This document shows, piece after piece, positions 26,921-57,136 of a DNA stretch of 64,000 bases. This stretch comes from Lobosporangium transversale (lineage: Eukaryota), in contig NW_019029013.1 of assembly GCF_002105155.1 (NCBI RefSeq), positions 310,001 to 374,000 on the forward strand, in the 5' to 3' direction. Position numbers and translations under genes: made by a program. The notes below the pieces were generated by a model that was not told the DNA's origin, searched no databases, and was given only the letters and a program-made list of their open reading frames with translations. Within the stretch, counting starts at the first letter, position 1; each line of letters begins with the position of its first letter.

Positions 26921-26952
<32 letters not shown>

Positions 26953-31810: not shown

Positions 31811-31882
31811 TGCCCACTGCAGGGATCGAACCTGCTACCTTTTGCTTACTAGGCAAACGCTCTACCAATGAGCTAAGCGGGC
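31811..31882 (-). tRNA. tRNA-Thr (AGT)
   Basis: Reverse complement GCCCGCTTAGCTCATTGGTAGAGCGTTTGCCTAGTAAGCAAAAGGTAGCAGGTTCGATCCCTGCAGTGGGCA folds as a full cloverleaf with anticodon arm TTTGC-CT AGT AA-GCAAA. A T4 terminator follows. Confidence 0.96.
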
Positions 31883-32178
31883 TTGTTATTTCGGCTTCTT
31901 TTAATTGAATTCATAAAACTTACTTACAACTTCACGTGACTAATATACGCGCATCACGTGCTATGAATGTTAACAGAAAAAATTGAAGTTGAACAGAAAC
32001 TATGGTCTGTGCGAGACATTTACCATGGAGTGAGGACGCACAACAGACTAAGTAAAGAACTCTTAAACTCTTCTCCGATCCATCAAGTCGGACGCTACAT
32101 TAACACTGCCCCTCTCTTAACACCCCTTACACACCCTACGTTAGCGCACAAGAGTGCAAAAGTATTTATCAACCCAAG

Positions 32179-33962
32179 ATGTCTGGGGCTGAAAAAATTC
32201 AACTCCATCATCGACAAGATGATGGAGAATCAAGCAGAATGAACAATTTCAAAAAACAAAAACTTCCCCTTGACGGCCAAGACGCGCAAAAACCAAGCCA
32301 AAGTATTGGGGCCACCACCCCAATTGCAATGAATTCCACTCAACGCTGTTCTTATAATCCCAAAAAGGGACTAAAACAAATGCAAGTTGATCAAGAGCGC
32401 GCTGCTACCGAGACAGCAATTGACGAAGACGACGAAGAAATGGATGACGAAACAGAGTGGATCGAAGTTCAGAGAACTAAGGAAAGGTTTTTCGTGGCCA
32501 CGGCTCCTGTGGATCTGATCTATGGCGACACCTGCGCTATGAAAAGAGATGAACTCCAGCAGATCCTCATTCACCAAGGCATCCACTGCACGGAGGGACC
32601 AACCCGTATCAAGAATAAGGACGGACAAAAAGTTTTTCGCGTCGCCGTTGAAACGCTGGGTGACCTAGAGAACCTGCTGGAACTCACTCACCATAAAGAA
32701 GACGAAGAAAACGGAACATCTTCGGAGCAGCCTATCTTCACCAGAGTCGATCAGGACCAACGCATCACAGAACAGGATAGATCAGTTGAAATTTACGGTC
32801 TTCATCCCAGGACTGATGATTTCAGGATCAAATCAGCGATGGCTCAGTTTGGCGAAGTGGAAAAAATTGTAACTCGTCCATGCAAAAATGGTATCAAAAT
32901 TGTGGCAAGAGTTCTCTTTAGACAAGAGGAGAGTGTAAAGAAAATCCAAGCGGAAAAGAAAAAGTGGGTTTTCGTTGTAGAGATCTTGCTCGTTTAAGTA
33001 CAATTGGAAAGGAGAAAGTAGTGTGGGAACTGCGTTATGTCGCAAAGCTGTCTCAACTCCCTATGGGAACAACGCCTTTGGACTTGAAAGAGATCCTGGG
33101 CGAAAATAAGGCTGAGTTTTTAATTATCCCAAGGATTTTCTCGAAAGAGGGTAAATACACAAAGACTTTACGTGAAGCATTCGTTTATTTCTCATCAGAA
33201 GCAGACATGGTTAGCTGCATGGAGATTCCCATTAAAGTAGGTGGGAAAGAAACTATGTGGGGAGATAAAGAAGACAAAAGATGTAGAGAGTGCGGTGAAC
33301 TAGGCCATATTCAAAGGGTGTGCACAATTTACATTGAAAGAATGAAGACTAAGGCCCACATCCAGGCAGTGAAAGAGTACCAAAGAGGTGGAGCGCTTAA
33401 GGTCACGGCTAACCGTACATTTGCACAGATCATTGGAAGTAGCAGCCAAAATGGAGAACAGACACAGAGACAAAGCGAATTGCAAAATGGACCGCAAAGT
33501 GGACTGCAGAATGGACAAAACAGCGGACCACAACAAAATAAGCAACAACAGCCTGGACAGCAGCATAATGGACAAAATAAAGCTATGCAAAATGTATTGG
33601 AAAAGAAAATTGGACAACTTCAAGAGACTATCGTTAGAATGCAACAGGAGCAATTACAGCTTGCGCAGACCAATCAGATGTTGATGTCTATAGTGATTCA
33701 AATACTCTCAAAGAATATGGGCATCACTGTCCCTAAGGAATAGCTAATGGCAGTCGGTCTGAGCGCAGACACAAGTCGCAGCGCGATGAAGTCAAAGAAA
33801 GGCCAGAACTCCAGTGGACTAGCTATCCCAGACACGAACGAGACTTTGGCCGCTATTATGGCGCTAATGGGCCCACCCAGGGCTGCTGAAAAAACAGTAC
33901 CATTGCCATCAAAGCCTGTAGTGATAATTGGACAATCCTCAAAACCTTCCTTAAATGAGTAA
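32179..33962 (+). CDS. LINE ORF1 (RRM-like domains, CCHC zinc knuckle, Gln-rich coiled coil), interrupted by a frameshift at about 32977 and TAG at 33741-33743
   Basis: RRM-like SVEIYGLHP...MAQFGEVEKI and knuckle CRECGELGHIQRVC. Three ORF pieces (32179-32997, 32964-33743, 33744-33962) join into one protein. Confidence 0.85.
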
Positions 33963-36900
33963 TACGTCTAACATAGTAACATGTAGGACAGTAAATAGAG
34001 ATGGAAAGAATGATGGATTGAAGTTAGGAACCTTCAATACACAGGGAATTTTAACAGCTGGAAAATTGGAAACACTTTGTCATTGGGGAGAGTCAGAAGA
34101 GTATGATGTTATTGCGTTACAAGAGACAAATATGAATCATGGTGCGAAAATAGCAGCAGACTATATAAAACAAGAAAGTTATAAATTTTGGTGGTTAACA
34201 GGTGAGGAAGGGAAAACGCGAGGTACGGGAGTCGGCCTCATTATCCACAAGTGGCTATGGGTACATGCTGGGAGAATATCCTCATGTGGAAGCAGAGGGC
34301 AGTCTAGAGATTTTAATTTCAAAGGACAATTAAAGCTTCGGGTGATTAATTGTTATGTACCCAGTGAAGATAGAACGAATCGTGAAAAGGAAAAGCAGCG
34401 CAGAGAATTAAGCGAGTGGCTCAAAGGAGAATGTATTAGTGCAAGAGCAGAACGCAGGGAGGTAATTGTTATGGGAGATTTCAATGGGGTATGCAATCCC
34501 AGGATTGACAGAAAAAACTGCACAAGGACCAGCACCAATCCAGAAACCGATATCCTAAAATGGCTACAAACAGAGCAATTCTACGACACCTACAGGGCGT
34601 TACACCCAACAACACAAGACTTTACATGCCAAGGTGTCAGCCGAATTGACATGATCTTTACAGATAGCTTGTTGGTGGGCAAGCTTGTGTATGTTGATCA
34701 CAGTTCGGTTGATGGAGTCTCGTCGGACCATAAAATGGTGACGGCCAATATCACAATCCAAGCACTCATCCACAAGGCAGATCCTCTTAAGTACAAGAAA
34801 CCCAAAGGCTTCCGCTTTCAATTTCGAGACATTAACAAGACACAGTGGGATGATTTTGAAAATGCCTTAAACATGGCTCTCGACGATCAGGAGAAAATGA
34901 GGAATCTTGGACTCAAATATGAGAACCAAAATGAAGGCAGAATAACTCCGGAAGAATTAGAGAAGGTAAAGGTGGAACAAGCGTGGCGCTGGTACTCAAA
35001 AACAGTGCTTCGCTGTGCAAAAGCGACCCTACCAGGTAAAACAGTAGGTAGATCAGGGGTGAAACCTCAAGCAGAACTCTCGATCTTACACTTAGTGCGG
35101 GACCTAAGCAAGATCAAGCAAGCAACGGTGGCAATTAGACGGAGAAGACGAACCGATCTAGAGGATAGTGCAAGAGAATATCTAGAGGCGGAGCGGATCA
35201 AATTCAACAACCACGCGAAATGGATGAGGGAAGAAACGGAAAGAGGAATGGAGGATCTAGGCGAGGTGCCTGGGTGGAACGCAGATGAAGAAGAATGGGA
35301 GACATGGAGCAAGGGTATCAAGAAAAGATGGGTACAGGCAATATCGGAGATGCAGACAGAGAGGCGTTTAGAAAAAGCATCGAAGATGACAGAGTGGATT
35401 GAACAGAGATGCGGACAGCTGCTTACGGCGACAGGTCGGATGATTGATAAGTTGTTAGGTAGAGGACATGGAAGAGTCATACTGGACAGGATTCAAGTAC
35501 AGGAGGACGGTGACACTTTCAACATTCTTGAGCCAGAAGGTATTAAAAGGCACGTCAGAGAATGGTTTCAAAAGTGGCACGGTCCCAGGCCTGCAAAACC
35601 TCTGGAACAAGGAACACGCTGGGAAAGACAATACGCACCACACGAAAGGATCAAGGAAGAATGGTATGATGGGCTCATGAGCCCACCTTCATGGGAGGAA
35701 TTTATGGTAGTGATCCAAGAGACACCAAAGAACAAAGCACCAGGAGTATCAGGCACCACGAACGATTTATTTCAACATCAAGGCCAAGTCGGACATAACA
35801 TTCTTTTCCAGATTGTTGGTGCCACAATAGTCCAAGAAACAATACCAAAGGATTGGAAAACTGGACTATTGTATTGCATCCCAAAGGCAGCAGAATGGTC
35901 AGGAAGCATGGCGGAAGTCAGGCCGATTGCGCTTCTAGAACATGCAAGAAAAATCATGTTCACAGTTCTAACCAATAGACTTAGTGAAATGATGCGGCGT
36001 CATAACATCTTGCGGGGGCCTAACTTTTCTGTCTTAAAAGGAACGACGACAAAGGACCCAATTCATATCCTCCAAGCAGCAATGGAAGATGCTAGAGAGT
36101 TTCGCAAGGAGCAATGGATAGTGTTCCAAGATATGAAAAGGTGTTTTGATTCGGTCAATTGTGCTTCCGATGGTATGTTGTCCAGAGGGCTACGTCGCTT
36201 ACGAGTTCCAGAGGCATTTATCAGGTTGTGTGAGAACATCGCTGTTACCAAGGTCAATAGAGTTATTACAGAATACGGGCTTACGAAAGAGTACCGCCCA
36301 GAATGCGGTCTGGATCAAGGAGGCGTAGAGTGCCCTTTACTCTGGCGAATAGCTTATGATCCACTACTATGTGAAGTTATGGACCACATGAAGGGATACA
36401 GAATAGAGGGCCCTCCAGATACACCTCAGCTCGCATGTCTGGCTTTTGTGGACGACACGACATGGATATCTGACTCCAAGCAACATGTACAGGATATACT
36501 AGATGTCGCCACGTCCTTTTTTGTTCTTAACGGGGTCGAAATCAATGCGAAAAAGACGCAGGTGCTAACACTAAACAGCAAGCTCAACGATAACAATAAT
36601 CTCCATTTTGGTACACCGGCAGAAGAAATCCGCCCGCTGGGCAAAGATGACCCTGTCCGGATACTAGGTGTCTGGGTAACAGCCAGAGGGTCGGTGAAGA
36701 CAACAGAGAACATTGTAGAAAGAGAAGTCACGTCAATGTGTAGTATTCTCTCCTCAAAAGCAGTAACCGACAAACAGACAGCATATCTCATCAATAACGT
36801 CCTCATACCCAAGGTGCTTTATAGGATTTCGGCACAGATACTTCCCCCTTCTTTTGTGAGACGAATGACAGGTAAGTATATGAAGCTATGTAAGAGCAAA

Positions 36901-39900
36901 GCACGTATGCCGTCAACCACACCCAACAGCATAATGCATCACCCTAGATTCTATGCAATTAAAAACTTAGAAGACGCACAGACAGAGGAGCAGATATCAA
37001 CCCTATTCCTACGCCTAAATGACAATGAGTTGATGGGACGTATCTGTAGAGCACGTCTCATTGCCCTCCAGAAGCGCCTTAGGACGAGCAAGCTCCCAAC
37101 TGCAGAGCCGCACAAAATAAAAGCATACAAACACAACTTCGCATCAAGCGTCTGTAAACTAATGGCCGATCGACAAGTGAAGTTTGACTTGCAACTAGCA
37201 AACGATTTTGGGCTCCCTGGAAATGCTCTCAATATAGCAGACATGCTTCATGGCATTGTGGATGACCAGCCTGTGCGGAAATTAGCAGCAAGAGGAATAT
37301 ATTATGCTGAGCAAACTCTAGACGAGGATTCGTCACTCAAATCCTGGAATGAGGTACGTACGAAAAGGAGAGACCCAAAGGCATCTCCAGCATGGTTCCA
37401 CAATGTTCAAAATGCCCTTCATGAGTCCCTTTACACACACAACTTTATCGAAGTATGGTGTAGAGACAAAAAGAACATTCTTCAGAGACTAGACGAAGAG
37501 GAAGAGAGAGATTTAAGGGAGCTCCAACAGCTAAATGAGGCTGAAAACAATGAGAGAGCAGATGAACTACTCACAGAAGACAATATGTTGGAGGGGCAGC
37601 CCACTGAGGGTGATGAGGATGATGAAGTTGGATATATAAGTTACCTCAGTGACGTGGAAGACCCCAGAGAGCCACTTGATCCCCTAAGTGTAGAACAGCG
37701 GGAGGAAAGAGAAAGAAGAGCACAGTGTTACATACAAGAGGGTATGCAGGAGTATGAAGGATACACTGAGTCTGATCGCGAACTCCAAAAAGAATACTTG
37801 CGAGAAAATTTTGAAAAAAGAGAGCGTTTGAGAGAAAAAGAGCGCGAAGCTAACGAGAGGCATAGGCTGTGGAAAGATCCTCAAGGAAGGAAAATGTTAC
37901 AATTTCGCGACCGTTTGGAAAGAGGGAAGAGGGAGCAATGGTTGCTAAGAAAAATAGAGCAAGAGAGGAAAAAAGAAGAGGCGGAGAGAAGGAGAGTGTG
38001 GCGACGTGAACAGTGGGTGCAAGCCAAGCAAGAAGCCGCACACTCGAAGGCTATCGAAAGAGCTCGCCGTCAAGAACGCCTACGGTTACAGGCTAGGTTT
38101 CAAAGGCTCGATGAACAAGGAAGAAGAGAACAGCGACGACGAGCGGCTTTCAACCGAGCAAGACGTAGAGCACAAGAGCGAAACAAGATACGTGGATGCC
38201 ATGAACTCGATGAACAAGCTCTCAATAGGAGGCTCAGGACTCCTCAAGAACAAGGAATAATAAAATCCCAGAGGGTCATCATCGGTGGTTTGGCTCCTCT
38301 GAGTGCCTAGGTGTAGAGATCCCACAGGTTGACATGGACAATATACTGCGTCAAAGAGAGAAACTATCAACGATGAGTCAGCTAACGCTTTACTTCGATG
38401 GGTCCCTTGAAGAGGCAGGAAGAAGGGCGGCGCGGATGGCTTTCGGAGTGGTGGCTCAGATAGGCCCAGAAAGCTTCTCAAATGTAGTTTCAGGTAGAGT
38501 CGATGGGTATGCTTCATCCACCAAGGCAGAGCTAGTAGGACTGTACGCAGCCATCCTAGTCAGTCCCCGTAACGTTCCAACGACTGTCTACATAGACAAC
38601 ATGGCGGTAGTGGTTCAGTTCAAGGACCTTGCTCAAAAGCGAGAAGCAAGCACTGAACGGCAGCGATTGCGATCCAAGTACGCAGTGTGGTGGGCAGCCA
38701 TTTCGAGAGCGCTCTTTAAGCAGGGCGGGAAGGTAACTGTGAAATGGATCAAGGGCCATGCTGGGAATAGAGGCAATATAAGGGCAGACCAAGCCGCCAA
38801 AGATGCCCATTTTAGCGAAATGTGGACAATCAAAGACTGGAACACAACGATCTGCGCTGTCACGCTATTTTCGAGAACGAGGTGGTGGAGGATGATCTTA
38901 GACACCTGCTAAAACTCCAATCAGCAGTGAGAACACATTACTTGTGGGCGTCTCAGAACAGAGTCAGGAATTATATTGCAGACTGGCGAGAAGTAGAATG
39001 GAAAGCAAGCCTGCATATTCTTCACGATGGCAACACGCCTAGAGGCCTCTTCACCAGCCCAGCAGATTGTCACAAGAGAGCGCACAGAATAAAGAAGGTC
39101 CATGGTATGCTTCCTACACTCACTTATATGAGGCAGTGGCGACCGGACCTGTATGAGACTGACATCTGCAGGATGTGTGAACAGGAGCAGGAGGACATAG
39201 AACACCTCTGGCGATGTCCCATGACACTGGACGAGCAATTGAAAGGTTGGAAGCAGGCCATAGAACTCATCACGAAGGATGGCAAAAGAGCATTAGTGAA
39301 GGAGAAGAAGCTCTGGGAAGACAAACAAGGGAAAACACAGGAGCCAAACCTGAATAAAGGAGGCCCCTCGTTTACACCTGTAGCCGACAACGTGATTTGG
39401 GGCTCTTTGGAAGCGATGTTCAAGGGCGTCAGAGAGATTCGACATGCGAGCACTCTGTTTGGTGAGGAAGATGTGGATATGGGACGGAGGAACGAGGGTG
39501 AGCATGCCCACTGGACTGTCCAAGACTTGTACCACGGTTTGGTGCCGAAGGAACTGATACAAAAATGGAAGACGATCTTCAGAACCACAGCATCGATCTC
39601 AAGGTACATTGTTTGCCGCTTTGTCAAGTCAATCGAGGAACTCGGCAGGACTGAAATCTGGAACAGACGCTGCAAAGTCACCGTCAACTGGGAAAGAGAA
39701 AATGGCATCACCTCTGTGAGCAAACGCGCCAGGGGACGCAACTGTGTTGGGAGGCACAGACGTAGCAGAGGTGAATTCTTTGGCTCTCACCAGGGACAAC
39801 GACGAACAGCAGATGTGAAGGCGATCAGGACTGAGGCAGACCGGCGAGTGGCGGCAAGCTACCGGCAGCAGGTGGAATTGGCGATTATGGAGCGCCTGGA

Positions 39901-39937
39901 AAGCTGCAAATTTTTGATGATTGAGGACAGCGGCTAA
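33955..39937 (+). CDS. LINE ORF2 polyprotein: APE endonuclease, reverse transcriptase, E/R-rich helical insert, RNase H, C-terminal CCHC; frameshifts at about 38260-38290 and about 38840
   Basis: APE motifs LQET, GDFN, RID, SDH. RT motifs KAPG, RPIALL, DMKRCFDSV, GLDQG, AFVDD, ILGV. RNase H motifs YFDGS, KAEL, YIDN, WIKGHAGNRGNIRAD. C-terminal CRMCEQEQEDIEHLWRC. Confidence 0.93.
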
Positions 39938-40205
39938 AGGATGACCTTCGCGCACAACAGGCCAAGTAGGGAGTAGAGCCGTGCCACAGGTCCTCTGGGA
40001 CCAAGGAAGTCTACTCAATGCTGACGTGGTTTATGAACAGGATGTAGTACTGTGGCAGTATGACGATGCGGCTTCGGCCGATTATTGGATACCGCTTTAT
40101 TTGCGACCCCAGTAATGGGGCAACCCATTTATAGAGCTAACATCAAAATAAATCCTACATGACCTCGTGGGTCCTTGTTATCAAAAAAAAAAAAAAAAAA
40201 AAAAA

Positions 40206-40857
40206 TACTTGTCATGGCACCCCCCTATCTAGCCCAGGGGCCGGGTTCGAGTCCTGGTTAAGGCACATAAAGTGAAGCAAACATGTGCCAGGTCAGGGAT
40301 TTGTCTGAGTTTTTATACTTTCTCTTCGAGACAGCCTAGTGTTCTCCGCTAAGGCTAAGATCGTGGGTGCACTACCCTAAGTCGCCTGGCTGGCCACACG
40401 TCTTAGTTATATATTCCACCCCAGCCGAACCAGCGGTACATCTGGCAGCACATCCCCCATCCACCCACTTGACTAGGACAGCGATCACAAAGTTTGACGG
40501 AGTCCAAAGTAGAAATTTCAGACCAATCCCGCAAGATTTGGGTCCACATGCCAGTGGATTTGATCGAATAGAAAAAAATTAAAGTCGTCCTAAGCTAGAG
40601 TCGGCACGCCAGCCTCCGCGGCTTTTCACGGGCGCAACAGGCCACATCGGAAGGATGGACTTCGAGTACCGATCACGGTGTACATTGGTAGAGAAAAACA
40701 TGGATACGAATTGGCTCTTCACAGCCATACCGTGCGAACTTTGAGAGTTTCACTTGTTTCATAGTTGAGGGCGATATCATTAATTTAGAGCGAGATTATG
40801 AAATAAAATTCCTCACCTCTGTGGGTTCTTGTTAACACAAAAAAAAAAAAAAAAAAA
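40206..40857 (+). mobile_element. Candidate SINE: tRNA-like head, unique body, LINE-like 3' tail, poly(A)
   Basis: T-arm and B-box CCGGG-TTCGAGT-CCTGG at 40241-40257. The tail (AAATAAAATTCCTCACCTCTGTGGGTTCTTGTTAACAC followed by A19) resembles the LINE tail (AAATAAATCCTACATGACCTCGTGGGTCCTTGTTATC followed by poly-A). No long ORF. Confidence 0.65.
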
Positions 40858-41770
40858 GGACAACCAAAGGATGGGGAAACAGCGATCAGCGTTGTCATGC
40901 TATATTCGAGAACGAGGTAGAGGATGATATTGGACGCCTGCTAAAGCTCTAATCAGCAGTGAGAACACATTACTTGTGGGCGTCTCAGAATAAAGTCAGG
41001 ATCTATAGTACAGATTGTAGAGAAGTAAATTGGAAAGCAAGCTTGCATATTCTTCACGATGGCAACACGTCTAAAGGTCCTTTCGCCAGTCCAGCAGATT
41101 GCCACAAGAGAGCTCACAGAATAAAGAGGGTCCATGGTATGCTTCCTACACTCACTTATATGAGGCAGTGGCGAGCTAACATCTAAATAAACCCTACATG
41201 ACCTCGTGGGTTCTTGTTATCAAAAAAAAAAAAAAAAAAAAGCAGTGGCGACCGAACCTGTATGAGACTAACAGGAGCAGGATGTGTGAACAGGAGCAGG
41301 AGAGCATAGGACACCTCTAGCGATGCCCCATGGCACTGGACGAGCAATTGAAAGGGTGGAAGTAAGCCATAGAACTCATCAAGAAGGATGGCAAAAGAGC
41401 CCTAGTGAAGGAGAAGAAGCTCTGAGAAGACAAACAAGGGAACACACAGGAGCCAAGCCTGAATAAAGGAGGCCCCTCGTTCAACCTGTAGCCGACAATG
41501 TGATTCGGGGCTCTTTGGAAGCAATGTTCAAGGGCTTCAGGGGGATTCGAAATGCAAACGCTCTGTTTAGTGAGGAAGATGCAAAGGAATGGAGGAACAA
41601 GGGTAAGGATGCCCACTGGACTGTCCAAGACTTGTACCGTGGTTTAGTGCCGAGAGAACTGACACAGAAATGGAGGACGAACTTCAGGACCACAGCATCG
41701 ATTTCAAGGTGTATTGTCTGCCGCTTTGTCAAATCAATCGAGGGACTCGGCAGGACTGAAGTCTGGGACA
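40858..41770 (+). mobile_element. Old degenerate fragment of the same LINE family (matches about 38824-39664)
   Basis: Collinear with the ORF2 C-terminus (RTHYLWASQN, HWTVQDLY.GLVP), with several in-frame stops and indels and no tail of its own. Confidence 0.93.
41175..41241 (+). mobile_element. 67-bp 5'-truncated LINE tail inserted in the old copy with a 10-bp TSD
   Basis: GCAGTGGCGA is duplicated at 41165-41174 and 41242-41251 but is single in the full-length copy (about 39133). The insert is the LINE's last ~47 nt plus poly(A). Confidence 0.92.
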
Positions 41771-44700
41771 TGGAAGATAATTCAAAATGTGCATGCGATA
41801 TATAACCATTTACAGAACGTATATTGAAAGGGATAAGATGGTATACGGGACAAGGGAGGTTTTGGAGGCACTTCCACTCAAGGAGGTGGAGAATTGTTGA
41901 GACTAAAGGCAGAAGTCCTTATTAATAGCTTGCTTGTCCTATGCAATCAATTGGGAGATGGGGTTGTTGAAGTGATCCAGGAATTTGCTTAGGAGCTCGG
42001 AGTGTCCTGTCTATAGTAACAAAAACTACAATGAAAAGAATAAAGCGAAAGATTGCTGAGTTGTATTTGCTTTTCTAACATTTTGAGATAATAGAGAGAA
42101 TAATAGAAGCTTGTCTCAATCATGTCCTTGGGATGTTGTTCCTGAGGTCCTCTCACTCTCACACTCTACAAGACTCAAGCAAGATATGCCATCACAAACA
42201 TCTCTCCTATCTAAAATACATGAACCCGTATGCATATGCTAACATGACTTTAGTCCATAGTCGGGATGAAATATCCTGCAAGTCAAAAAAATAGATCACC
42301 ATTTTAGGATGGTGACATTGCTACAAAAAGAAATTCATAATAAAAAATATGTATTTAGATATTAAAAGAGTGATCCATAACGAACGAAGGGCAGCTTACT
42401 GGTCGCCCTATAAAAAAGAAATTGCTAATATTTACACGCCATTAAACTTTGCCTTTCAAGTATCCCCAACGCTTGTATTCCGTTCTTGTCTTCGCAATTT
42501 AATATTGCACTTGTCTTCCTTTGCCCCCTAGATTTTTTGTCATCTTTGTCTGTTTAATTGGTTTAATTGCTGGTACAGGACAACAACGGTTAAAAGAGGA
42601 AATTAAGTTTTGATGGCCCAGGAACATTTCGATTCCTTAACCCTTTATCATTACTTTTATGCACTCCCTTATTTTAATTTTTTTATTTTTTTGCTTCTAC
42701 TCTTATTTCATGTATCGAACTAAGTAATTCCAGCGGCGTTATTGCTCACTCTATTGTGTGTGGTGGACTTGATAAGGTGCAAGGTTAATTCTTCACAGTC
42801 TCATGGTCTACGTCCTCAAAAAATGTTAAACGAGGTAGAACATTTATACTTCTTTCAACATTAAGCACTGATCCGTGTTAATTAACCTTGGCTGTAACAC
42901 AAATATTGCCTCTACTCTATTGACAAACTGTAATAGAAAAAACTTTAATCGGGATACATTCATTTACAATGTATTATATCTCAAATCAAGTGGTACAACA
43001 ACAACAGCATGAAGAGAATGCGAATAAAAAAAAATAAGGGGTGTCACTGCTTTTTCCATGCCAAAAACCAAAAGCTTTATTCATGCCATGTCTGTTGCAA
43101 CAATGCAACAGTATATATCATTGCATCCCCTCTTTATGCCTGTATGTTTGTCTCTGCTCTCTGAGCCATCCATCCTTGACTATGGTCAGAGTGGACCATC
43201 GTCTTTCTTTTGATACTCTTGTGCTTGCTCTCACACTTTTCTCGCTCTTTTCCCCTCACTATTAATTCAATAATAGTAGTATTAAAAAAGGGAGGCCATT
43301 GTCACACTTTACACTTACCCATCTACCTCATTCACATTTAGTCATTCCATTCGTCTCATTCACATCTCGGAAAAAAAAAATTGATTGCACTTTCTATTCG
43401 CTATCTTTTTTTTCTCATTTTTCCCAAATTTTGGCCGACCAATCAACTAATCCCAAAATGGACTGCGCGCTTGTGACAAAAACGCGAAGAAAAAGGTTTC
43501 TGCGCCAATAGAATGAGGTTCTATCCCGATTACTCGTTTAAAATCGAAAGAGCTCTTTTGGCCGCACATCCCACACATCCCTTGAGGAGAAAACCCGGCC
43601 CGAAGGCCTGGACCTACCTTGAATAAAATAAATAAACTTGAAGATGATATCGTCTATTGAAGAGTCCATTGTACCAGAAAGCACAGACACCTATTTTTCT
43701 CACTGTTATACCCTCTATATGTACAATATATACACTTTTATTCCCAGAGAAATATTTATATATAATTATTTGGGAACCAAATTCAGAGCAAAAACCAATC
43801 ATTGGGATATTGAGGCCAAGCATAGTGGCCTGAATGTATTCTTCCTGCACGCCATAATCCTTCGCCTTTATTTTTCAATTGTTTAAATTTCCCCCTCGAT
43901 CTCCTTTTTGCCATTTCTTCTTCCAGGGCCACTTTCCTTTCCTTTTATTTGAAAGGAAACAAGCAGATTGTTGGCATGTGCATGTCTCTTTTCCTTCCTG
44001 ACGCTCTCTCACTCTTACTCCTTCTCTCTAACCCCTTGCAATCCATGTCAATCCCAATACACATAGGTTAACAGTCCATATTATGCGTGGTGCACCACCC
44101 CTTCCATTTTTTTTTTTTTTTTTTTTTTTCAAGGGAGAATAATATCTCATGGCTCCTGGCCCAAGTAGGCTCTCTGGCTTCTCCTCTTTCTCTATCTCCA
44201 TCTCTGCACCTATCCTGTATCCCCGTCTGCCTTTGATTTGGATTTTACACCTGGCCATTAAGTTTTTGCTAGAGAAACGTTAGCATATATTCATCCAGTA
44301 CTTGTGCCTCGTTCAGAGCGCTTTGGGTAGCAATCGAGAGCCAAGTCTTGAGATTGATATAGCGAATGACTACATCGTTCTCAATAGCTAACGAACGTAA
44401 AAAAAAAGTTTTTGCATAAATTGTTATAAACAGCATAGGCCAAAAAGAAATAAAGCCATGTTGGGACGCGACTCAAAGCCAAGGTTCACTGTATTGTGTA
44501 TAAATGTGTGTATGTTTGCATGTTAGTATATGCTTTTGTTGTGGGTCCGTTTTTTTTTAGTTCCCTCATAATTTTTACGACTCCTGAAACGGGCAGGCCA
44601 TTTGGACCATATGCTTGTTATATTTTTGTTGACATCCGTTAGCTTTTTGGCCTCTTTCAAGACATTGAGCTGGTTCTTTCTTTTCTCTTTTTTCTTTTTA

Positions 44701-44846: not shown

Positions 44847-44964
44847 CTACTCTACTCTACTCTGCTCTACTCTACTCTACTCTGCTCTACTCTACTCTAC
44901 TCTACTCTACTCTATTTGCTCTATCCTGTTCCTTACACCACACTACACCACACTACACTACACT
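44847..44964. repeat. Compound pentanucleotide microsatellite, (CTACT)n then (ACACT/ACACC)n, upstream of the G-alpha start
   Basis: Tandem CTACT units at about 44847-44914 and ACACT/ACACC units at about 44935-44964. Confidence 0.9.
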
Positions 44965-45084
44965 GTGCTATCGCCGCCTATCAACAAAAAGGAAACCAAA
45001 CACGGTCAGCCAACCAGCGCGGCCCCATTAATCTTTCTCAATTGGACGTACCTGATATCAACAATAGCATCATAATAAATCATC

Positions 45085-47177: not shown

Positions 47178-47489
47178 AAAAAAAAAATTGCTATGCAAAC
47201 AAACATAAAACATGTTACGTATTATTCAGACTCTACTCTCTCACCTCCTTTGTTTCTCCTACACTGTTCTCCCCTTTCATCCTTACTCTCAAGTAATTAT
47301 GAGAGGGTGATATAATTCTCCGTCATATCCACACAACGTATATACCAATTTAAATTTATTCAAATATGTACTGTATTTAGTTTGTGCAACCACAGCATTC
47401 TATTTTGTGCCTGAAATTTTCAGTCGTAATAAAGTTAATAAAAAAAGACCATGGTTGTTTTAAATATTTTTATTATCTATATTTCGTGC

Positions 47490-48382
47490 TCAGCGATCAG
47501 TATTATCACCAAAGTCTTGATTAAAGGCCTCCAAGATTGCCTGTCCAACAGCAAGATGCGACTGGTCATTAGCATCAACATCGGCGTCAGCAGATCGGTC
47601 TTCCATCTCTCTAATTTGTTTGTCAAGACTACCATCATTGCCCTCAGAATTCTTATCTAATTCATCTGAACTAGCGCTTGAATTCGAGTCATTATCACTT
47701 GATTCATCGTCGTCGTCCGAGTCGCTGGAGTCATCCGAATCCGAAGAGGAAGGTTCATCAGATGACTCCTGAGAAGATCCCTCTTCGGATTCGTCTTCAT
47801 CTTCTACTTCAATCTTGCCATTGACTGCTTCATCATCCTCCACCTCCGTGTTCACAGACCCTATGGTGTTATTACGAGTGTTGTTATTCTTGGCTCTCAC
47901 GCTATCATTAACATCACTGTTCTCGTTTTGCTGTTTCTGTTGGTCAGTTTTCTTGAATAGCTGTGTTGGAGGCTCCTCAATCGTGTACTTTTCCAAAACT
48001 TTATCCGAAATGTTCTGCTCATGGTTGATGGTGGCTACTTCCGTTGCTATTATTCTAGGTTCTGTTGTTGTCGTTGTTATTGATGTTGTCTCGGCGTTAC
48101 CTCCTGCATCTGGTATTGCTGCTATTGATGAAGCTATATTTTCTGAGCCTGGTTCCGAGGATGAAAATGATAAAGAAGAAGGCCCAACGACAAGAATTGA
48201 GGGGTATTCAAGCACTTTCTTGAACTTGAGTGCATCTTGTAAAGTGTCTGTGCTCTTGAGAGGATACAGTGCTGGCTGATTAGCCTTTTGATTTCAACAA
48301 TCACAACCATAGTAGTGATAATTATAAAATAAAATTAAAAATAAAAAAATATCAGTATCCAAAACATGATTGACTGCATTGC

Positions 48383-48426
<44 letters not shown>

Positions 48427-49571
48427 AACATTACATGTCGCAAAGGGATCACAAAATAAAGTCGGCACCGATCCAGATTTGCAACTGGGTATCTTTCTAT
48501 TAAATCCTCCGATCCTTTACTATTTTCTGCTCTGTTCAATGAACCTTGAAGCAGCTCCTTTAACGTCAAAAGCTCCATATTTTTATGCTCCAACAGCCGC
48601 CTAGAGGGACCCACTGCTGGGAATAGCCATTCAATTGTCCATATGATTCTGCTAGGCCTATTCAACAACAATGAAACGGGAAAAAAAAGAGGTATGCTGA
48701 AAATGAGAACTGGTTGCAAATATTGAAAAGTTCAAAAATGAAGAGTGTCGTTTTTTTCCTTCTTCTTCTTCCTTTCACATACTTGTCTCTCCAATGAGTT
48801 TGATTCTCTTTTCGTTTTTTCAATCCATCTGGCATCCTAATCAGATGAATTGCACGTTTCCTAGCCTGCATGATCAGTTGCTTATCCTTATATGTGCCGC
48901 TTCCTTCCGCTCCCAATTTTTCCAGATCCTGTGCTGCAGATAAGGATAATTTTGTAATTGATTTGTCTTCCCCTTCTTCTTCATCGCTCGCAGCATTTCC
49001 CTCCATTTGATCTCGATGGTGATGATGGCGTCCACGCTTTGTTTTTGCACCATGAGTGCTGTTACTATCATTGACTCCAAATATGCGTTTCCGATTCGGT
49101 TTAGATCCTGCACCACTTTGCTTCATATTTTCGCGCGCTGCATTGTCAACTGTCCGACCAACTTCTTCCAAAAAGTTATAATCTAAAAAATCAAAACTCA
49201 AGAATTTGAGATTCATACTTTTTTTTTTTTGATAACGAAATATTTCAAAGAGAATTACCAAAAAGAAAAAAAAAAATCATTCATATCTTACCGCTCATCA
49301 TATCTTGTTCTGTATATTGTTTCCGTTCGACATAATGAGTCCTAGATCGAATACCTGTACAGGTTGTGTCGAGTTTATGTTGTTTTGAACAAGCCAATGA
49401 ACATGTCTGACAAAGACAGCGTGGACACTTGTATTTAGCTCTCAGTTGGCCACAAACCTCACAATCGATAATATCTCCGGTCGATACCGTGTCTGTCTCT
49501 TTTTCCCGAATTTGGATCCCATCTTTGACCACTACCTCTCGAGTTACAAAAGCGTTGGTGAAAAAGTCCAT
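47490..49571 (-). CDS. BCD1: Box C/D snoRNA assembly protein BCD1/ZNHIT6 (zf-HIT); exons approx. 49571-49292, 49182-48783, 48651-48435, ~48280-47490
   Basis: HIT finger CEVC...KYKCPRC...CSLACSKQHK..TCTG, plus DYNFLEEV, IWTIEWLF and VLEYP, and an acidic tail. Confidence 0.88.
48387..48423. repeat. (TA)n microsatellite in a BCD1 intron
   Basis: Perfect TA run. Confidence 0.9.
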
Positions 49572-49804
49572 AGTAAAAAAAAAAGAATCTCAATAAACAA
49601 ACACAAAAATAGATTATTATTATTTTTTTTTTAAAAAAAAAAAAAAAAGGGCCTCGTTTGCAAGCAATGTCGCAAAGGGTTTAATGTCTGAAGAAACAGC
49701 TGGTGAGAATTTAAAGAGTTCAGAAGGTAACAATGGGGATCAACAAGACTCATGGTCAAAACTCATTTGTTTCTTTTCTTTTTTGTGACTGTAAATGAAA
49801 AAAT

Positions 49805-49837
<33 letters not shown>

Positions 49838-49873
49838 TGGCGCATTCAAAATTATTTATTTTTGAGAATTGGT

Positions 49874-51348
49874 TTAGATTTGAATAAGGATATTGCGTTG
49901 TGGTTGCTGAGCTTGCTTGGGCGGTTGCGGCGCCGCTGCAGACTCAAAGACTGACGATTGGTCCTGAGGTACGGTCTGAACAATGTAGTCCAACTCCAGC
50001 ATCAAGTCGTAACAAAAGTCATCCAATTTCAAATCGTTTGAATCAAAACCTTTATAGATAGTCCCGCAAAAAAAAAAAGAGTTAAGTAAAGGTTCATTTA
50101 CATGTGACAGAAACCGTATGTCAAGAAGTAGAGAATGAAATTACCAAAAGGATCTTCAATCTGATTTCCAATAGCTTCGATACCAAAAAGCGTAAAGGCT
50201 ACAGCGCCACATAGAGGGATCGTCAGCCATTGAACATCCCGGATGGTTGTGAATGGTAATATACAACAGTACATCGTCAAGATCTGCTTCAGATGAATAT
50301 TATACGCCACTGGAATCGGCGTTAACAGAATCCGTTCCAGATTTCCAAAGCAATCAATCATGGATGACAATGCCATGGTGCATTGACCCTGATAAGGGAT
50401 ATCGATCAGCTCCTTATCTCGCACATAATTAATCCACAACGAGAGTTGATATGAGATTTCCAATGGTAAAGACATCGATGCAGTCGAGTTATCCCGTTGA
50501 ATCACCCAATCACTCTTCTCTGTCTGTAAATGTTGTCGATGATTAATATATTGAGTCCTCAGATTTGTGGCACTCTTGCAGGGGACAAAATCCTCTGGCA
50601 ACAATCCCTGAAGATCTCTGTAGGCTGTTCCGTACTCTGCTCGAAGGTGATGCTTCGTCGCCACCGCAAACGCTAAAAGCATGTTGATGGCACGAATCTT
50701 TTGATCATTGATTCCTGTAGGACCATCAGGTTTCTCTTTGATACCCACCCAAATCACACGAGCCATGTTTCGGATACTTGTATTCATGGTTGTCCATATC
50801 TTGCGACCTTCCCAGAATCGATCATATGCAGTGTTGGTTCTGAAGGCGAGAATCAAACCGATAACAATACTCAAGGAGCCAACTGTCGGGGGAGAAATTA
50901 ATAATAATAAAGAAAAAAATTAGACAACTAAATCGTAGATACCCTCCCCCATCTCAGCCATGGTCTCTTAAACACAATAATAAAAGGCATTAGCCATCGT
51001 GCTTACTGACGGATCCCGCTACAGCAATATCAATACCCATGGCCAGGTAGATATAACTGACTGTTATTGCTACCAGTGTCGTGAACAAAACATTTGGAAG
51101 AATAAGTGGAATCACCTATGTTTCGACATATTCGTGTTCCGAGTTAGCAGAGGAGAAATCATGATCTTTTTACAATGACATAGACAACGATAAATAGAAG
51201 CTACTATATTGTCCAGGAATGCTATAAGGCAGACTCGGAAAGAACTACATCCACATATACATAAAAAAAAGCTAGTTTATCCTACCGAACCACGCCAAAT
51301 GAGAGCGATAGGGTATCCCCATGGACTTTCAGACCTTCTTAGTCCCAT
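49874..51348 (-). CDS. Bestrophin-family (UPF0187/YneE-like) anion channel; exons 51348-51286, 51115-51007, 50882-50145, 50049-49874
   Basis: Motifs WRGSVIP, LILAFRTNTAYDRFWEGRK, LERILLTPIPVAY and IEDPFGFDSNDL. Confidence 0.92.
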
Positions 51349-51716
51349 CGTTAATGAGACTTTCTATGGCAGACACTCTGTGGTATATCGTATGTCGTAT
51401 GATTTCAATTCTTTTTTATATTCTGGGAGATGTATGCAATTAAGGTCAGTGGGGCTTAAAAAAGCTGATGGCAAGATCAAAGGGAATTGAAGAACAAAAG
51501 AGAGATGAGAATGAACACACAGGGCAATCTTTTCATTTAAAAAAAGAACCGGAGTAGCTTACAGTCTGCACTGGGCCTGAGGCCTTATTGATTGTGAGCC
51601 CTTGTCATCCCCTGAATTTGGCAAACTTTCAAAAATTAACAGTCATTGCTCGGTTACACCAACAAACTATTTTTTTTATCCACTTATCCAACTTCCATCC
51701 TAACTACAGTTGCTAT

Positions 51717-53729
51717 CTAAAAATTGGTGGGCTTGAAACTGGGTGCATTAACATCGAGGGTCATGGTTCGACCTGAAAGCGAGCGGTTCAGCTGTGGGTG
51801 GGCATCGAACGCAGGTGTAATCATCACGGCATCTCGCAGTTGCTTTCGCTCACGGATGGTGAAGACTTTACCAGGCTCTGGTCCTTTGGGTTGACGAATG
51901 GGGTAAATTACGTTGGCTGTCGCTTCAGGATTAAGGCTGTTCATATCCATTTGCAAGAAAAAAAAAAGCAGAGAAAAAAAAAAAGTTAATCAACAAGACT
52001 CTATTGACACACGATATAATAAACCATGAAGAGGGTGTACACATACATCATAGATTTTCTGTAGGGTGAGCGTGTTGGGGAAGCAGATCCTGCAGTAGAC
52101 TCAGTGAGAGAACTCTTTGTCTTGAGGACTGGACTTTCGGAACGAAGGCTTCCTCGTCCGGCATATGACATAGGACGTTGCTATTTGTTTAAAGACAGGT
52201 GCATTAGTGATTATTAAGAAGCAAGTTGAGACTCAAGACACATTAGGATTACTAACCACCTGTAGCAAGTGGTTGAGACATACCTTGGGTGACCTTGGGG
52301 CTGGAGCTTCTAGGAGCATATAAGGTGGAGGATTCTTCATAATAATGAGCCTGCGCATATTACCTTCGCCCTCGCTAAAATGATGCAAGGATAGCTTATC
52401 CGCAATAAGATGCAAAATCCTGCGCTGACGGCCGCTCAGATTCTCAGGGAAGATCATATCATCTTTTGTGGAATCTCCACGGAACACCAACAAGCGATCA
52501 TAAAATGCCAAAGTCTCGGGATCATTCAAATCCAGTTGATTCGCTGAAGTTAATGGCACAAGCGTTCAATGAGCGATGAGATCATTCTAGGTTATTAAAT
52601 CAATTGACATGTAAACCAAATACATTCCGGGAAATGAAGCCCTGCTTACCAGACGAAGAATAACGTGTGTCAACCTCATCGCGATCGAGACCCCGTCCAG
52701 AGCTCTGGCGATCCAGGAGAGCAGAGGATCGATTGCGACGGTCGCGCTCAAACTCACGGTTCTGGTGTTCAAGTTCACGGCGTTCCTGCTCGCGCCTTTC
52801 CTGCTCCAAAAGTTGAGCCTCCATTAGCTCCATTTCACGACGGTGAAGTGCCTCAGCAGCCTTTTCCTGCTCACGCTTCTCTTGTTCAGCAGCAGGCATG
52901 ACCTTCTTGAACTCGACACGAAGCTTGCGTCCGGAGACATCGAGACCATTGACGGCATTGACGACAAGTTCAGTCTCCTCTGCAGTGCGATAGTTAGCAA
53001 AAGCTAGTCCACGGAAGACACCGTTGTCAAAATGGTAATTGAAAGCATATGGCTTGGGAATGTCAAGATTGTCAAGAATCGCAAGGAGAGCATCTCGTTT
53101 AACTGAGAAAGGAATGTTTTTGATAACAATAGCTGTTGGGATTGTATCAACAGGCTCCTCTGTAGGCTGCTGCTGCGATTGTTGCTGTGATTGCTGCTGT
53201 TGAGCGTACGAGGGCTGCTGTACGCCATAGGCGTTAAATTGCTGCTGCTGCTGCTGACGAGAATCTTGAAACAAGGGAGATTGGATAGGTGAGCCCTGAG
53301 TATGATTCCAGTTCTATTTGACAGAAGGAAGAAATGAGCGAACGATTGAAGGGACAGGGGATGTGGAGAAAGTTTGAAAAATTGAGTGACACAGAGACAG
53401 ACAACGATGGGAGCAACCACAGACACAATTTATATCGCACAACGCACAACGCCTCCGGTGTTCAGTGCCCATGTCATTATACCAGCTAATATGAGCCATT
53501 AAACACTTACCACATTCGCCAAAGACAGGCGATTGGATTGGCGGCGCATATCCTTGCCATCTGCTCGCACACTATTGCGCTGCGAACCAGTGACAGGCTT
53601 GCGAGTCACGGGGCTGGATGGAGCACGTTCCGAGCCATACTGCGAATAACGGCGGTCAATAGGGGAGGCGAGCGCATTATCTCTGAGAGACATGGCATCA
53701 AAAGAAAGGTCAAGTTGTTTGGTAGTCAT
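51717..53729 (-). CDS. PIN4: RRM + R3H RNA-binding protein, PIN4/Cip1-Cip2-like; exons approx. 53729-53511, 53313-52650, 52543-52284, 52180-52047, ~51937-51717
   Basis: IPTAIVIKNIPF...AFNYHFDNGVFRGLAFANY RRM, LDLNDPETLAFY, R3H (QRRILHLIADKLSLHHFSEG) and IRQPKGP. Confidence 0.88.
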
Positions 53730-54243
53730 GATTGCCAAGGATCAGCAAAAAGGAAAGAAAAGAAAGTGAATTACAAAAAAAAAAGCGAGAGAAAGAGAGA
53801 GGGATTTGAATCTGAGTGTAGATCTGTTGTCTGTTGTTGCTGGATATTTTTTTATGAATGTAATATGTACAGTGATAGAATAATATATACAGGCAGGCGT
53901 ATAAAGCTAGCCAACAATGCAAGAAAAATAAAAAGGATTCTTTGAAGAATGCTTATTGAGCAAAGTAATCCGTTTGTATAGATGTATGAAAATTGGAATG
54001 TAAGCTGCTGGTACTGTTGATGATATTTTAAAGAATGTATTTAACAGTTCTTTTTTTTTTTTTTTTTTTTTTTCCTGGTTATTTGGTTTTTTTTTAGTTC
54101 AAAAAGTCAGATGAGATGATGCACTGGGTGGTGTTGGTCGTAAATGTACTATCCGAGGCAAAAACAAGGTAAAATGAGAAAAAATAAGGATATATAAAGG
54201 AGTGAGACAAAAATGATATATTTATATATATATATATATAAAA

Positions 54244-54266
54244 AGAGAGAGAGAGAGAGAGTGAGA

Positions 54267-54304
<38 letters not shown>
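54244..54304. repeat. (GA)n microsatellite preceded by (TA)n
   Basis: Near-perfect GA run upstream of the PIN4-like gene. Confidence 0.9.
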
Positions 54305-56271
54305 AGGAGAGGAAAATGGGGATGATGCGATAGAGTGAAAGAGAGGATGGGGATAGGATGATGAGATGGAATAAGGACAAAGAAAAAAAGAGAATGCCCT
54401 TCTCTTATTACAGGAGCAAAGCAAGTACAAAAATCCTCAGAAAAACATGTACATTTATACAACATGCATTCATTCGTACGTGAATGGAGCTGACAGGGAG
54501 CAAACATTCAGATTTTTCATTCGACGATGCGTATGAAAATATAAACAAATGATTAGTCCACCCATGAGTATCATTACAACATCTCGTTTCCAATAGTGAT
54601 TTGCTCAACTATGCAATTACAAGGTGTTACGATGGATCGATTGTCTCTGTCCATCAGATCAATTTTCTTGCCCTGTTGCATGCATAGAATTTTGCAAGAA
54701 GGAGAGCACAGCTAAATGAGTTAATTTGCCTACATGTACTTACTTGGCTAGACTTCTTTTTGTCACACCATACCACAAGTAATGATAATCCATAGATGAG
54801 AAAAAAAAAAGAGAAGAGCCTACAATAGAACGCTCACAGGCATCTCCAAGTTAATGCTCATCGAACTATCTAACGCGTATATTCGAGTAAATTTCAGACG
54901 TTCTTGTCACGCTCAAAAACGGTAGAACCAGAGAGATTACCAACAAACACTATTCTTCGGGGCCGTGGACCTCATATTTGATCCTTATTAATGACATGCT
55001 GGGATCAGTATTAAGTAAGGCCGTGTATAACAGCCCATTTATAATAATGGAAACAGCTATCCTGTTATCTTCTGGTTCAGATGTCTAAAGCTCGTAATTT
55101 CCAGTAAATGCGGGTTCGGTGCTTTGATTGATTAATCGACACAAATTTGTACAAACATAAAAAAGAAGAAACATCTAGTGAAGAGCTGGTAGGGCTGTCA
55201 ACATAAAGACTGATCTGCAATTTATTTATGGTGTACTTCTGGGTCACTTCCTAAGACGCTTTGGAAGCTATACTCTCTAACTTGTATAAGAGCAGCTACT
55301 TTTGAGCAGTTATGCTGCCCTGCCTTGATTAGCTCCTTTGGTTTAGCTTGTTTATTAAACCTAGAAATCTTGGCAGGCTTGTTGTGCCCTGAGCATTCTC
55401 TTCATAGATATGAGCGCCGGATTTTTATAAAGGTTGGAGCTACTATCAGTCCTATGGGTTTTAGTGTCGGCTGTTGGGGATGATGTTTGCTCCTTTCTCG
55501 TCGTTCGGCGCCTCTGGTGAGGCTCTGACAAGATCTGCTACAGCCTTGATGACATAGTACACAATTGAAGAAGATCCAACTGTAACCCCTTCTTGGTGAA
55601 ATCGTTAATGTACCAAGCACAGCGGTCGTAGCTAACTCCCTACAGGACGGTTAGGTCTGTAATAGTGTCCAAGGAGCAGAATCCTGATATAGTCATTTCT
55701 CGGCCGGAATCCGACAAGCTCGAGAGGATTCTTCCATATAGGAACACACTCATGGGCTGAAGTCCTCCAGCCCCAACAACTAACTTAACTTTGCCAGTGA
55801 AGATATTAACCCTTCATGAGGAAGAGAATCAAGATCGCCCATTCAGCTAACGGTCAAAGACCGAATTAAACCGAACTTTAGGATCGTTTGGACGGATTGT
55901 TTAATTTGATGTCATGAATAGTGCTGTCTTGTTGAGGGGACCATATCTCGTATTGGTACCTATAGGCACGAGAGCAATACTCATGAGCCTACTTCCATGC
56001 CACCGTTGAATAGGCCATCCCCCAGGTAGTTGGTGTAATGTATCCTGAACGACTTGAGGGGATCTTCGACCTTTTTGAGGGCTCTGAGAAAATGTCCTTG
56101 TGAGAGATTCCTTTAAACTTGATCAATAAGAACCTTTTTTTACTTACATTTCTATCCGCAGAGCACCCACAGCATCTTATCCGTAAGGTAAAGATATGTA
56201 ATCTTCCATGTTAGGAGAAAATGAACCATGCATAGGCTAATTAGTAACGTTAGTAAGGAGACGAAAGAAAG

Positions 56272-56304
56272 TTTTTTTATTTTTTGATAACAAGGACCCT
56301 AAGA

Positions 56305-56344
<40 letters not shown>

Positions 56345-56792
56345 ATAACAAGGACCCACGAGGTCATGTAGGATTTATTTAGATGTTAGCTCTATAAATG
56401 GGTTGCCCTATTACTGGGGTCGCAAATAAAGCGGTATCCAATAATCGGCCGAAGCCGCATCGTCATACTGCCACAGTACTACATCCTGTTCATAAACCAC
56501 GTCAGCATTGAGTAGACTTCCTTGGTCCCAGAAGACCTGTGGCACGGCTCCCTACTTGGCCTGTTGTGCGCGAAGGTCATCCTTTAGCCGCTGTCCTCAA
56601 TCATCAAAAATTTGCAGCTTTCCAGGCGCTCCATAATCGCCAATTCCACCTGCTGCCGGTAGCTTGCCGCCACTCGCCGGTCTGCCTCAGTCCTGATCGC
56701 CTTCACATCTGCTGTTCGTCGTTGTCCCTGGTGAGAGCCAAAGAATTCACCTCTGCTACGTCTGTGCCTAACAAGGACCCTAAGACTCTCAG
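56272..56792 (-). mobile_element. Tiny tail-only retroposon (about 25 nt plus poly-A) with a 17-bp TSD, itself interrupted by a later LINE insertion
   Basis: AAGGAGACGAAAGAAAG is duplicated at 56255-56271 and 56793-56809. The reconstructed insert is CTGAGAGTCTTAGGGTCCTTGTTATC plus poly(A) on the minus strand. Confidence 0.8.
56309..56768 (-). mobile_element. 5'-truncated young LINE copy (matches 39752-40205) with a 21-bp TSD
   Basis: Near-identical reverse complement of the full-length element's 3' end, with poly-T at 56309-56343. TAACAAGGACCCTAAGACTCT is duplicated at 56288-56308 and 56769-56789. Confidence 0.95.
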
Positions 56793-56827
56793 AAGGAGAC
56801 GAAAGAAAGATTATGATCTACAGATCT

Positions 56828-56960
56828 TCTTTTTTTTTTTTTTTTTTGATAACGAGGTCTCATTAAGATTGTTCCCCCGCTGGGAACTGAGCTGATAACC
56901 ATCAGTGGCTAGTCTAGAAGCTATACGGCTACGCCAAGGGTGCACCCACCCGCCATCTTA
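56828..56960 (-). mobile_element. Short tailed retroposon of a related family (SINE- or LINE-derived 3' fragment)
   Basis: Minus strand ends ...GAGACCTCGTTATC plus poly(A), the same GTTATC-poly(A) terminus as the LINE. The body is GC-rich with hairpins, and no clear TSD was found. Confidence 0.6.
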
Positions 56961-57064
56961 CTAGAGTTTTTTTTTTATAATGGTATTCAGTCAGTTTATT
57001 ATCACGTGATATAACCAAGAGTATATTGGGTTTATATATTACTAGAAAATACGAATGCCAAGAA

Positions 57065-57136
57065 GGTCTACTGGCCCAATGGAAAGGCGTCTGACTACGA
57101 ATCAGGAGATTGCAGGTTCGACCCCTGCGTAGATCA
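57065..57136 (+). tRNA. tRNA-Arg (ACG)
   Basis: GGTCTACTGGCCCAATGGAAAGGCGTCTGACTACGAATCAGGAGATTGCAGGTTCGACCCCTGCGTAGATCA folds as a cloverleaf with anticodon loop CT ACG AA, followed by TTTT. Confidence 0.96.

Follow-up and report, generated by a model that had tools for sequence, protein, structure and literature searches.

Can a fungal retrotransposon without long terminal repeats (non-LTR) choose its landing sites by transfer RNA (tRNA) genes? The question is raised by a 64-kb stretch of DNA from Lobosporangium transversale (contig NW_019029013.1, positions 310,001 to 374,000; the whole stretch is called the window here, and positions are counted from its first letter), in which a near full-length long interspersed nuclear element (LINE) and related retroposons are piled up in two stacks, each upstream of a tRNA gene. 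The original prediction had read this as a LINE system that targets tRNA genes. The upstream, head-to-head geometry was found at both of the window's tRNA genes and is echoed at a locus of another species (L002), but the landing zone is wider and lies farther from the tRNA than that of TRE5, an element of Dictyostelium discoideum. We put at roughly 70% the probability that the LINE's proteins pick a landing zone ~100-190 bp upstream of tRNA genes, a TRE5-like habit in which the LINE is paired with a short interspersed nuclear element (SINE). This figure covers position-specific targeting through an RNA polymerase III (Pol III) complex or an unspecified tether; a further, far smaller share goes to a factor bound to a sequence motif. 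The features concerned are as follows (ORF, open reading frame; UTR, untranslated region; AP, apurinic/apyrimidinic; RT, reverse transcriptase).

31810..31882, minus strand: tRNA-Thr(AGT) gene (ARAGORN; Rfam RF00005, 69.1 bits; T4 run 14 nt downstream)
31933..31960, no strand given: two RTCACRTG sites, 51-78 bp upstream of tRNA-Thr
32003..32029, plus strand: weak 30-nt match to the C-terminal ORF2 region, probably a piece from a second LINE subfamily, 121-148 bp from tRNA-Thr
32065..40205, plus strand: near full-length non-LTR retrotransposon (LINE), a broken copy with a GTTATC-A23 end (shared 5' start, 5' UTR block and terminus)
32179..33959, plus strand: ORF1 of the LINE, with tandem RRM folds, a CCHC knuckle and a long C-terminal helix (frameshift near 32976, premature stop near 33741)
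33955..39937, plus strand: ORF2 of the LINE, with AP endonuclease, RT, Glu/Arg-rich linker, RNase H and CCHC-type C-terminus (frameshifts near 38236 and 38834)
40206..40857, plus strand: tRNA-derived SINE of 652 bp with an A19 end (A/B-box head minus its first ~7 nt, unique body, ~200-nt LINE-related tail)
40858..41770, plus strand: old LINE fragment from the C-terminal part of ORF2, tailless and frameshifted, 11.5% diverged
41175..41241, plus strand: 5'-truncated LINE end of 47 nt followed by A20, lying inside the old fragment (10-bp duplication, 41165-41174 and 41242-41251)
56255..56809, minus strand: 26-nt retroposon end with tail, starting 256 bp from tRNA-Arg (17-bp duplication, 56809-56793 and 56271-56255)
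56308..56769, minus strand: 5'-truncated LINE copy of 426 nt followed by A36, lying within the 26-nt insert (19-21-bp duplication)
56830..56966, minus strand: element A, ~119 nt plus A18, ending in CTCGTTATC, with its 5' end, as inferred from an A10 run, ~99 bp from tRNA-Arg
57001..57010, no strand given: one RTCACRTG site, 55-64 bp upstream of tRNA-Arg
57065..57136, plus strand: tRNA-Arg(ACG) gene (ARAGORN; Rfam)

Two stacks upstream of two tRNA genes

All six of the predicted termini, each consisting of GTTATC or GTTAACAC followed by oligo(A), were present at the places claimed (40182, 40838, and 41221 on the plus strand; 56848, 56344, and 56286 on the minus strand), and the 5' end of each element faces its tRNA at both tRNA genes, in keeping with the head-to-head arrangement first described. 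The termini do not mark six separate insertions, nor LINEs throughout. Rather, they fall into two stacks in which those at 41221 and 56344 are nested in other inserts, and the one at 40838 belongs to a SINE. Because of this nesting, the six termini are not independent, and the unit of evidence is two stacks at two tRNA genes. Upstream of tRNA-Arg, the three minus-strand inserts were confirmed, the nearest starting ~99 bp from the tRNA. The start of the tRNA-Thr stack had been placed at 80-150 bp, which holds only if the weak piece at 121 bp is counted, since the LINE itself begins 183 bp from the gene. The three plus-strand termini are 8.3-9.3 kb away from tRNA-Thr, and only the start of the stack is near it.

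The absence of further copies from the rest of the 64 kb was largely borne out. Self-BLASTN of the window revealed no family copy beyond the two stacks, and with 59 ORF1 and ORF2 homologues as tblastn queries the best 30 matches outside the full-length copy all fell in 40881-41856 or 56587-56814. The ~53.5 kb outside the stacks was without a family copy, and the other intergenic stretches were empty. A seventh GTTATC-A12 terminus is nevertheless present at 49230-49236 (minus strand), distant from any tRNA; its chance expectation is ~0.01 among the window's 44 A-runs of 12 or more, neither further element sequence nor a target duplication was detected there, and it is an unexplained, minor point. 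No further Pol III gene was found within 31700-57300 at E values up to 5; the relaxed output of ARAGORN (101 hits) was dismissed as noise.

At 32065, the 5' end of the 8.1-kb LINE, contigs of public runs X1 and X2 branch, and the 5' UTR block is conserved from this position onward in four relatives (L001 to L004, described below). The order in the tRNA-Thr stack, outward from the tRNA, is young LINE, older SINE, and oldest fragment, the last being 11.5% diverged from the young copy. The full-length LINE carries ~27 listed majority differences in 8.1 kb, which is a lower bound, and the SINE carries at least 11 in 0.63 kb; the mismatches of the old fragment are distributed 29/29/38 by codon position, the pattern of neutral decay. 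Insertion at the tRNA side would leave the youngest element nearest the tRNA, whereas nesting in tails would make the element behind a tail the younger one; the tRNA-Thr stack shows the former. This order bears on the idea that the family simply inserts into A-runs or its own copies, with one chance founder per stack in the A/T-rich DNA upstream of the tRNA. Head-to-tail junctions do occur right after oligo(A), with no visible duplication (40205/40206 and 40857/40858 in the window and 911/912 at L001), element A begins after an A10 run, two inserts lie plainly inside family sequence, and the yeast element Zorro3 inserts into poly(A) (PMC7175516). However, the age order that self-nesting predicts is reversed in the tRNA-Thr stack, the three visible target duplications, all at nested or short inserts (10, 17, and 19-21 bp), are of mixed sequence and are not A-runs, and 38 of the 44 A-runs of 12 or more have no family terminus. 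Moreover, self-nesting would not account for founders with a single orientation at three tRNA genes, and we regard it as quite unlikely.

In the tRNA-Arg stack, the 426-nt LINE end differs from the full-length copy by 3 mismatches in 426. Provided that element A came last, the sites of the 26-nt and 426-nt inserts would then have been ~120 and 140-160 bp from tRNA-Arg. Element A was considered as a relative of the SINE and rejected, its similarity to the two SINEs (window and L001) not being significant (46 and 191 of 300 shuffles).

Relatives and a third tRNA locus

Named homologues of ORF1 came from Mortierella, Entomortierella, Gamsiella, Benniella, Lobosporangium, and Dissophora, and homologues of ORF2 came from Entomortierella parvispora (62%) and from Rhizophagus and Geosiphon (28-30%), which makes a host in the Mortierellaceae likely. 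Scanning metagenomes with an alignment of 20 ORF1 sequences yielded six loci, L001 to L006, two of which (L002 and L006) had enough flank to be informative; a tRNA gene was present at one of these two and at one of the six overall, the flanks of L003, L004, and L005 (~125, 60, and 0 bp) being too short to inform. No relative was found in viral contigs (by ORF2 or ORF1) or in contigs of prokaryote genomes (by ORF1), and the two and three matches of terminal-motif scans, all without LINE similarity, were rejected as chance.

At L002, which is from another species, a tRNA-Cys(GCA) gene lies at 1-67 on the minus strand, cut by the contig end (Rfam, 54.5 bits; missed by ARAGORN). The 5' UTR block of the LINE starts at 225 and ORF1 starts at 328, and the LINE and tRNA-Cys are head to head, ~155 bp apart. 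From the tRNA gene density of M. alpina (228 genes in 38.38 Mb, as given in a part of PMC3234268), the chance of this geometry was 0.0006-0.0012 per locus. The L002 RT is 65% identical to the window RT and, in an RT tree built by a quick method (52 rows; P0035 and P0037 were omitted for short RT cover, and L004 and L006 are without RT), it stood at the base of an 11-row clade holding the window (Shimodaira-Hasegawa-like approximate likelihood ratio test [SH-aLRT], 99). The habit is likely older than the split of the window family from L002.

Taken over the three tRNA loci, the element is upstream of the tRNA and in one orientation at 3/3, with start distances of 99, 121-183, and ~155 bp. This position and orientation, together with the young-to-old order in the tRNA-Thr stack, favor targeting. 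The alternative that insertion is untargeted, that copies merely survive in harmless intergenic DNA near tRNA genes, and that the window was a lucky draw has in its favor that the window was chosen because the pattern had been noticed and that L006 is without a tRNA. Yet selection would not set an orientation or a distance band of less than 100 bp, the within-window chance for two stacks is 7e-6 to 3e-5, L002 (about 0.001) was not selected in this way, and the emptiness of the window's other intergenic stretches speaks against such survival. We therefore consider untargeted insertion very unlikely.

The pairing of LINE and SINE recurs at L001, in which a complete tRNA-Thr-like SINE (1-911, in another species) lies directly ahead of an intact LINE with a common 3' tail; that LINE has ORFs of 599 and 1896 aa and ends in a doubled short tail, and only 24 bp extends beyond the SINE. 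The window SINE is homologous to it (score of 105, against at most 68 in shuffles; 0/300). The head of the L001 SINE aligns to tRNA-Thr (0/300 shuffles), whereas that of the window SINE, aligned alone to tRNA, was not significant (28/300), although a B box is present in its sequence. The final ~200 nt of each SINE are related to the 3' UTR of the LINE that accompanies it; for the window pair, the tail stood out from all 300 shuffles by a narrow margin. The window SINE is noncoding, with no ORF of 150 aa. A conserved 3' stem-loop was looked for in five 3'-end sequences, none of which folded better than shuffles (0/5).

Several results weigh against targeting of a zone upstream of tRNA genes. 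The loci total three, and two of them were chosen after the fact. L006, the ORF1 of which is 31% identical, has ~270 bp of flank with no tRNA, and this flank gave no sign of a structured RNA (z of -0.98; no Rfam match). Of ~5 flanks of the window LINE's start expected in runs X1 and X2, two were visible, namely, the tRNA-Thr flank and one of 122 nt; the last 30 nt of the latter are T-loop-like in the LINE's own orientation, which is off the simple head-to-head rule, and may be the head of a SINE or the 3' end of a tRNA. The 47-nt copy is 317 bp inside the old fragment and thus beyond the main zone whatever the order of events. For the full-length LINE, the SINE, and element A, searches turned up no target duplication, and one that tolerated mismatches and also included the old fragment gave 3-4 mismatches in 12 at best; target deletion, template jumping, or recombination may be behind the junctions that lack a visible duplication. 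Finally, copy number was estimated from contig depth relative to the single-copy flank (129, 9.6, and 10.9 in X1, X2, and X3; run X7, with next to no coverage here, was left out), which is only a rough proxy for copies. Per genome, this gave 4-6 LINE 5' ends, 44-54 LINE 3' ends, and 28-42 SINE copies, the SINE being at ~28-42 times single-copy depth and hence apparently present in many copies. As this is less than one copy per tRNA gene, the two window loci with 3-5 inserts each would be atypical.

The putative tether and the RTCACRTG motif

If the LINE does target tRNA genes, a particle of ORF1 and ORF2 would be held by a protein at or just upstream of the gene. By analogy with TRE5-A, the first choice for this tether would be the Pol III initiation complex, and the second would be a factor on RTCACRTG. 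The endonuclease would nick one strand, which would fix the orientation, and target-primed reverse transcription would then copy the LINE RNA or a SINE RNA recognized by the common 3' tail. New copies would land on the tRNA side and push older ones outward. The strand-specific nick, the tether, and the trans-mobilization of the SINE are steps that we infer. The Glu/Arg-rich ORF2 linker is a candidate for a targeting contact. This linker (37500-38300, between RT and RNase H) is fast-evolving and very variable in length among homologues.

The second tether is suggested by RTCACRTG itself, which we take to be a site of the Cbf1/E-box type. It occurs between the tRNA and the element at all three tRNA loci (two sites at tRNA-Thr, one at tRNA-Arg, and two at L002, in 72-111) and is rare, with seven strand-hits in the 64 kb, four of which (three sites) are before the two tRNA genes, and with 0.56% of background 100-nt windows containing it. 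A factor of the basic helix-loop-helix type bound there, or its nucleosome-free gap, might be the anchor, with tRNA genes hit since the motif sits upstream of them. The single motif of L006 (204-212), ~60 bp before the LINE and with no tRNA, points the same way. Against this, the distance from motif to element (~35-130 bp) varies more than that from tRNA to element (99-183 bp), window sites at 13379, 50108, and 57430 are without an element, and no motif is present in the 125-bp flank of L003 or in the ~60 bp of L004. The motif may also simply belong to the tRNA promoter, perhaps across these fungi (Mortierellaceae) generally, or may be the anchor itself. We consider it unlikely that a motif-bound factor, rather than the Pol III machinery, is what guides the LINE. 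A broader proposal, that a Mortierellaceae-wide LINE clade and a tRNA-Thr-derived SINE share the zone 100-190 bp upstream and that a factor on the promoter's RTCACRTG sets it, is tentative and on balance doubtful. Were it correct, Pol III genes would be located by a third route, one followed by a non-LTR element beyond the amoebae and passed on to a SINE. Among the open-access papers listed by a search, all on Cbf1, the titles and beginnings of abstracts did not contain the phrase "upstream of tRNA genes." Another TCACGTGA is at 57422-57430, 290 bp downstream of tRNA-Arg, with no adjoining element.

Domain content, known systems, and neighboring sequence

The LINE shows several features of the L1 superfamily: RRM folds and a CCHC knuckle in ORF1, AP endonuclease, RT, and CCHC in ORF2, an oligo(A) end, 5' truncation, and variable duplications. 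A predicted model of the ORF1 homologue P0125 (mean pLDDT, 65.9) matched tandem-RRM proteins in a fold search. ORF2 matched PF03372, PF00078, PF00075 (E = 1.2e-13), and, weakly, PF13966 (zf-RVT), and intact homologues are 1887-2031 aa long; the frameshifts and the stop of the window copy are at positions where the majority contigs of the runs differ. The solved RTs closest to that of P0001 were human L1 ORF2p (E = 2e-19) and R2 (E = 1e-14), and the RT tree was one without named clade references.

Known systems were compared through parts of the sources cited here. Non-LTR elements that target tRNA genes are, in a table of PMC5911963, the dictyostelid cases TRE5, TRE3, NLTR-A, and NLTR-B. The TRE5 elements (TRE5-A, TRE5-B, and TRE5-C) land 44-54 bp ahead of tRNA genes and are oriented opposite to them, and binding of ORF1 to TFIIIB (TBP, Brf1, and Bdp1) has been shown for TRE5-A (PMC5911963, PMC5006619); several elements can stack at one tRNA gene (PMC5006619, Table 1 footnote). 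Like TRE5, the window LINE has two ORFs, encodes AP endonuclease and RT, ends in oligo(A), lies upstream of tRNA genes in the opposite orientation, and occurs in piles. It differs in its distance of 99-183 bp and in its RNase H (PF00075), which the ORF2 of TRE5 lacks, and passages on TRE5 in the same two sources mention no tRNA-derived SINE partner like that of the window. NLTR-A of D. purpureum and NLTR-B of Polysphondylium pallidum, also upstream of tRNA genes, are closest in domain content, with RNase H downstream of RT, but are 2-6 bp and 39-64 bp from the tRNA, a comparison made by description (PMC5006619). The element probably works like TRE5 and NLTR-B and is outside both by distance and outside TRE5 also by domain content.

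Grem-LINE1 of Mucoromycotina (bioRxiv 10.1101/706580) is from the same phylum and is LINE1-like; it carries a zinc knuckle, AP endonuclease, RT, and zf-RVT, and its distribution is biased by position. It is pericentromeric, however, in gene-free surroundings and with RNase H unlisted, whereas the window is gene-rich and its LINE has RNase H; the text seen of that source does not contain "tRNA." Zorro3 of Candida albicans is a fungal L1-superfamily element that also forms head-to-tail junctions at A-tails, but it targets poly(A) with no regional preference, in contrast to the mixed-sequence duplications and reversed age order of the window (PMC7175516). Ty1 and Ty3 of Saccharomyces cerevisiae are found upstream of Pol III genes too, Ty1 with a similarly broad spread, but these are LTR elements with an integrase, whereas the window LINE has an AP endonuclease, oligo(A), and 5' truncations (PMC5911963, PMC7175516). 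No paper on a fungal non-LTR element targeting tRNA genes was found by title and beginning of abstract in open-access PubMed Central and bioRxiv, a search to which subscription journals, Repbase, and Dfam are external.

If targeting is true, a fungal family that shares the habit of the amoebal elements, at another distance and with RNase H, would open the question of a second origin versus inheritance and that of the host protein being recognized, and the SINE would be an example of a passenger element that adopts the targeting of a LINE. A position-specific LINE would also be a candidate tool for safe-harbor insertion, and the tether could be tested in Mortierella alpina, an industrial, transformable fungus. 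RTCACRTG is likewise a testable lead on the tRNA promoters of early-diverging fungi.

The piece at 32003-32029, which by its sequence is probably, if weakly, a remnant of the second LINE subfamily, is 77% identical over 31 nt to L001, and 14/300 shuffles were as good. A loose end of run X2 near 32029 continued in frame like P0001 and was not recovered in a later contig comparison; a different insertion at the tRNA-Thr site in X2 was rejected, as X1, X2, and X3 span the identical tRNA-LINE junction. By eye only, 32036-32056, just ahead of the LINE start, resembles 39950-39970 (LINE 3' UTR) and the SINE tail. At 32120-32157 and 39043-39780, runs X1 to X3 pointed to at least one further LINE subfamily in the genome (~4 copies at the 5' end by depth), and, at 39043-39780, to internally deleted LINE forms near the 3' end in the same genome.

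The surroundings of the stacks are rich in host genes according to the window's list of ORFs. By eye, we take these to include a C2H2 factor of the Sfp1 type (10979-12619), a ubiquitin hydrolase (18079-21032), a leucine-rich repeat protein (21547-23832), a RhoGEF-PH-FYVE protein (25502-28997), a bestrophin-like protein (50098-50787), and an aspartic protease (58422-60059).

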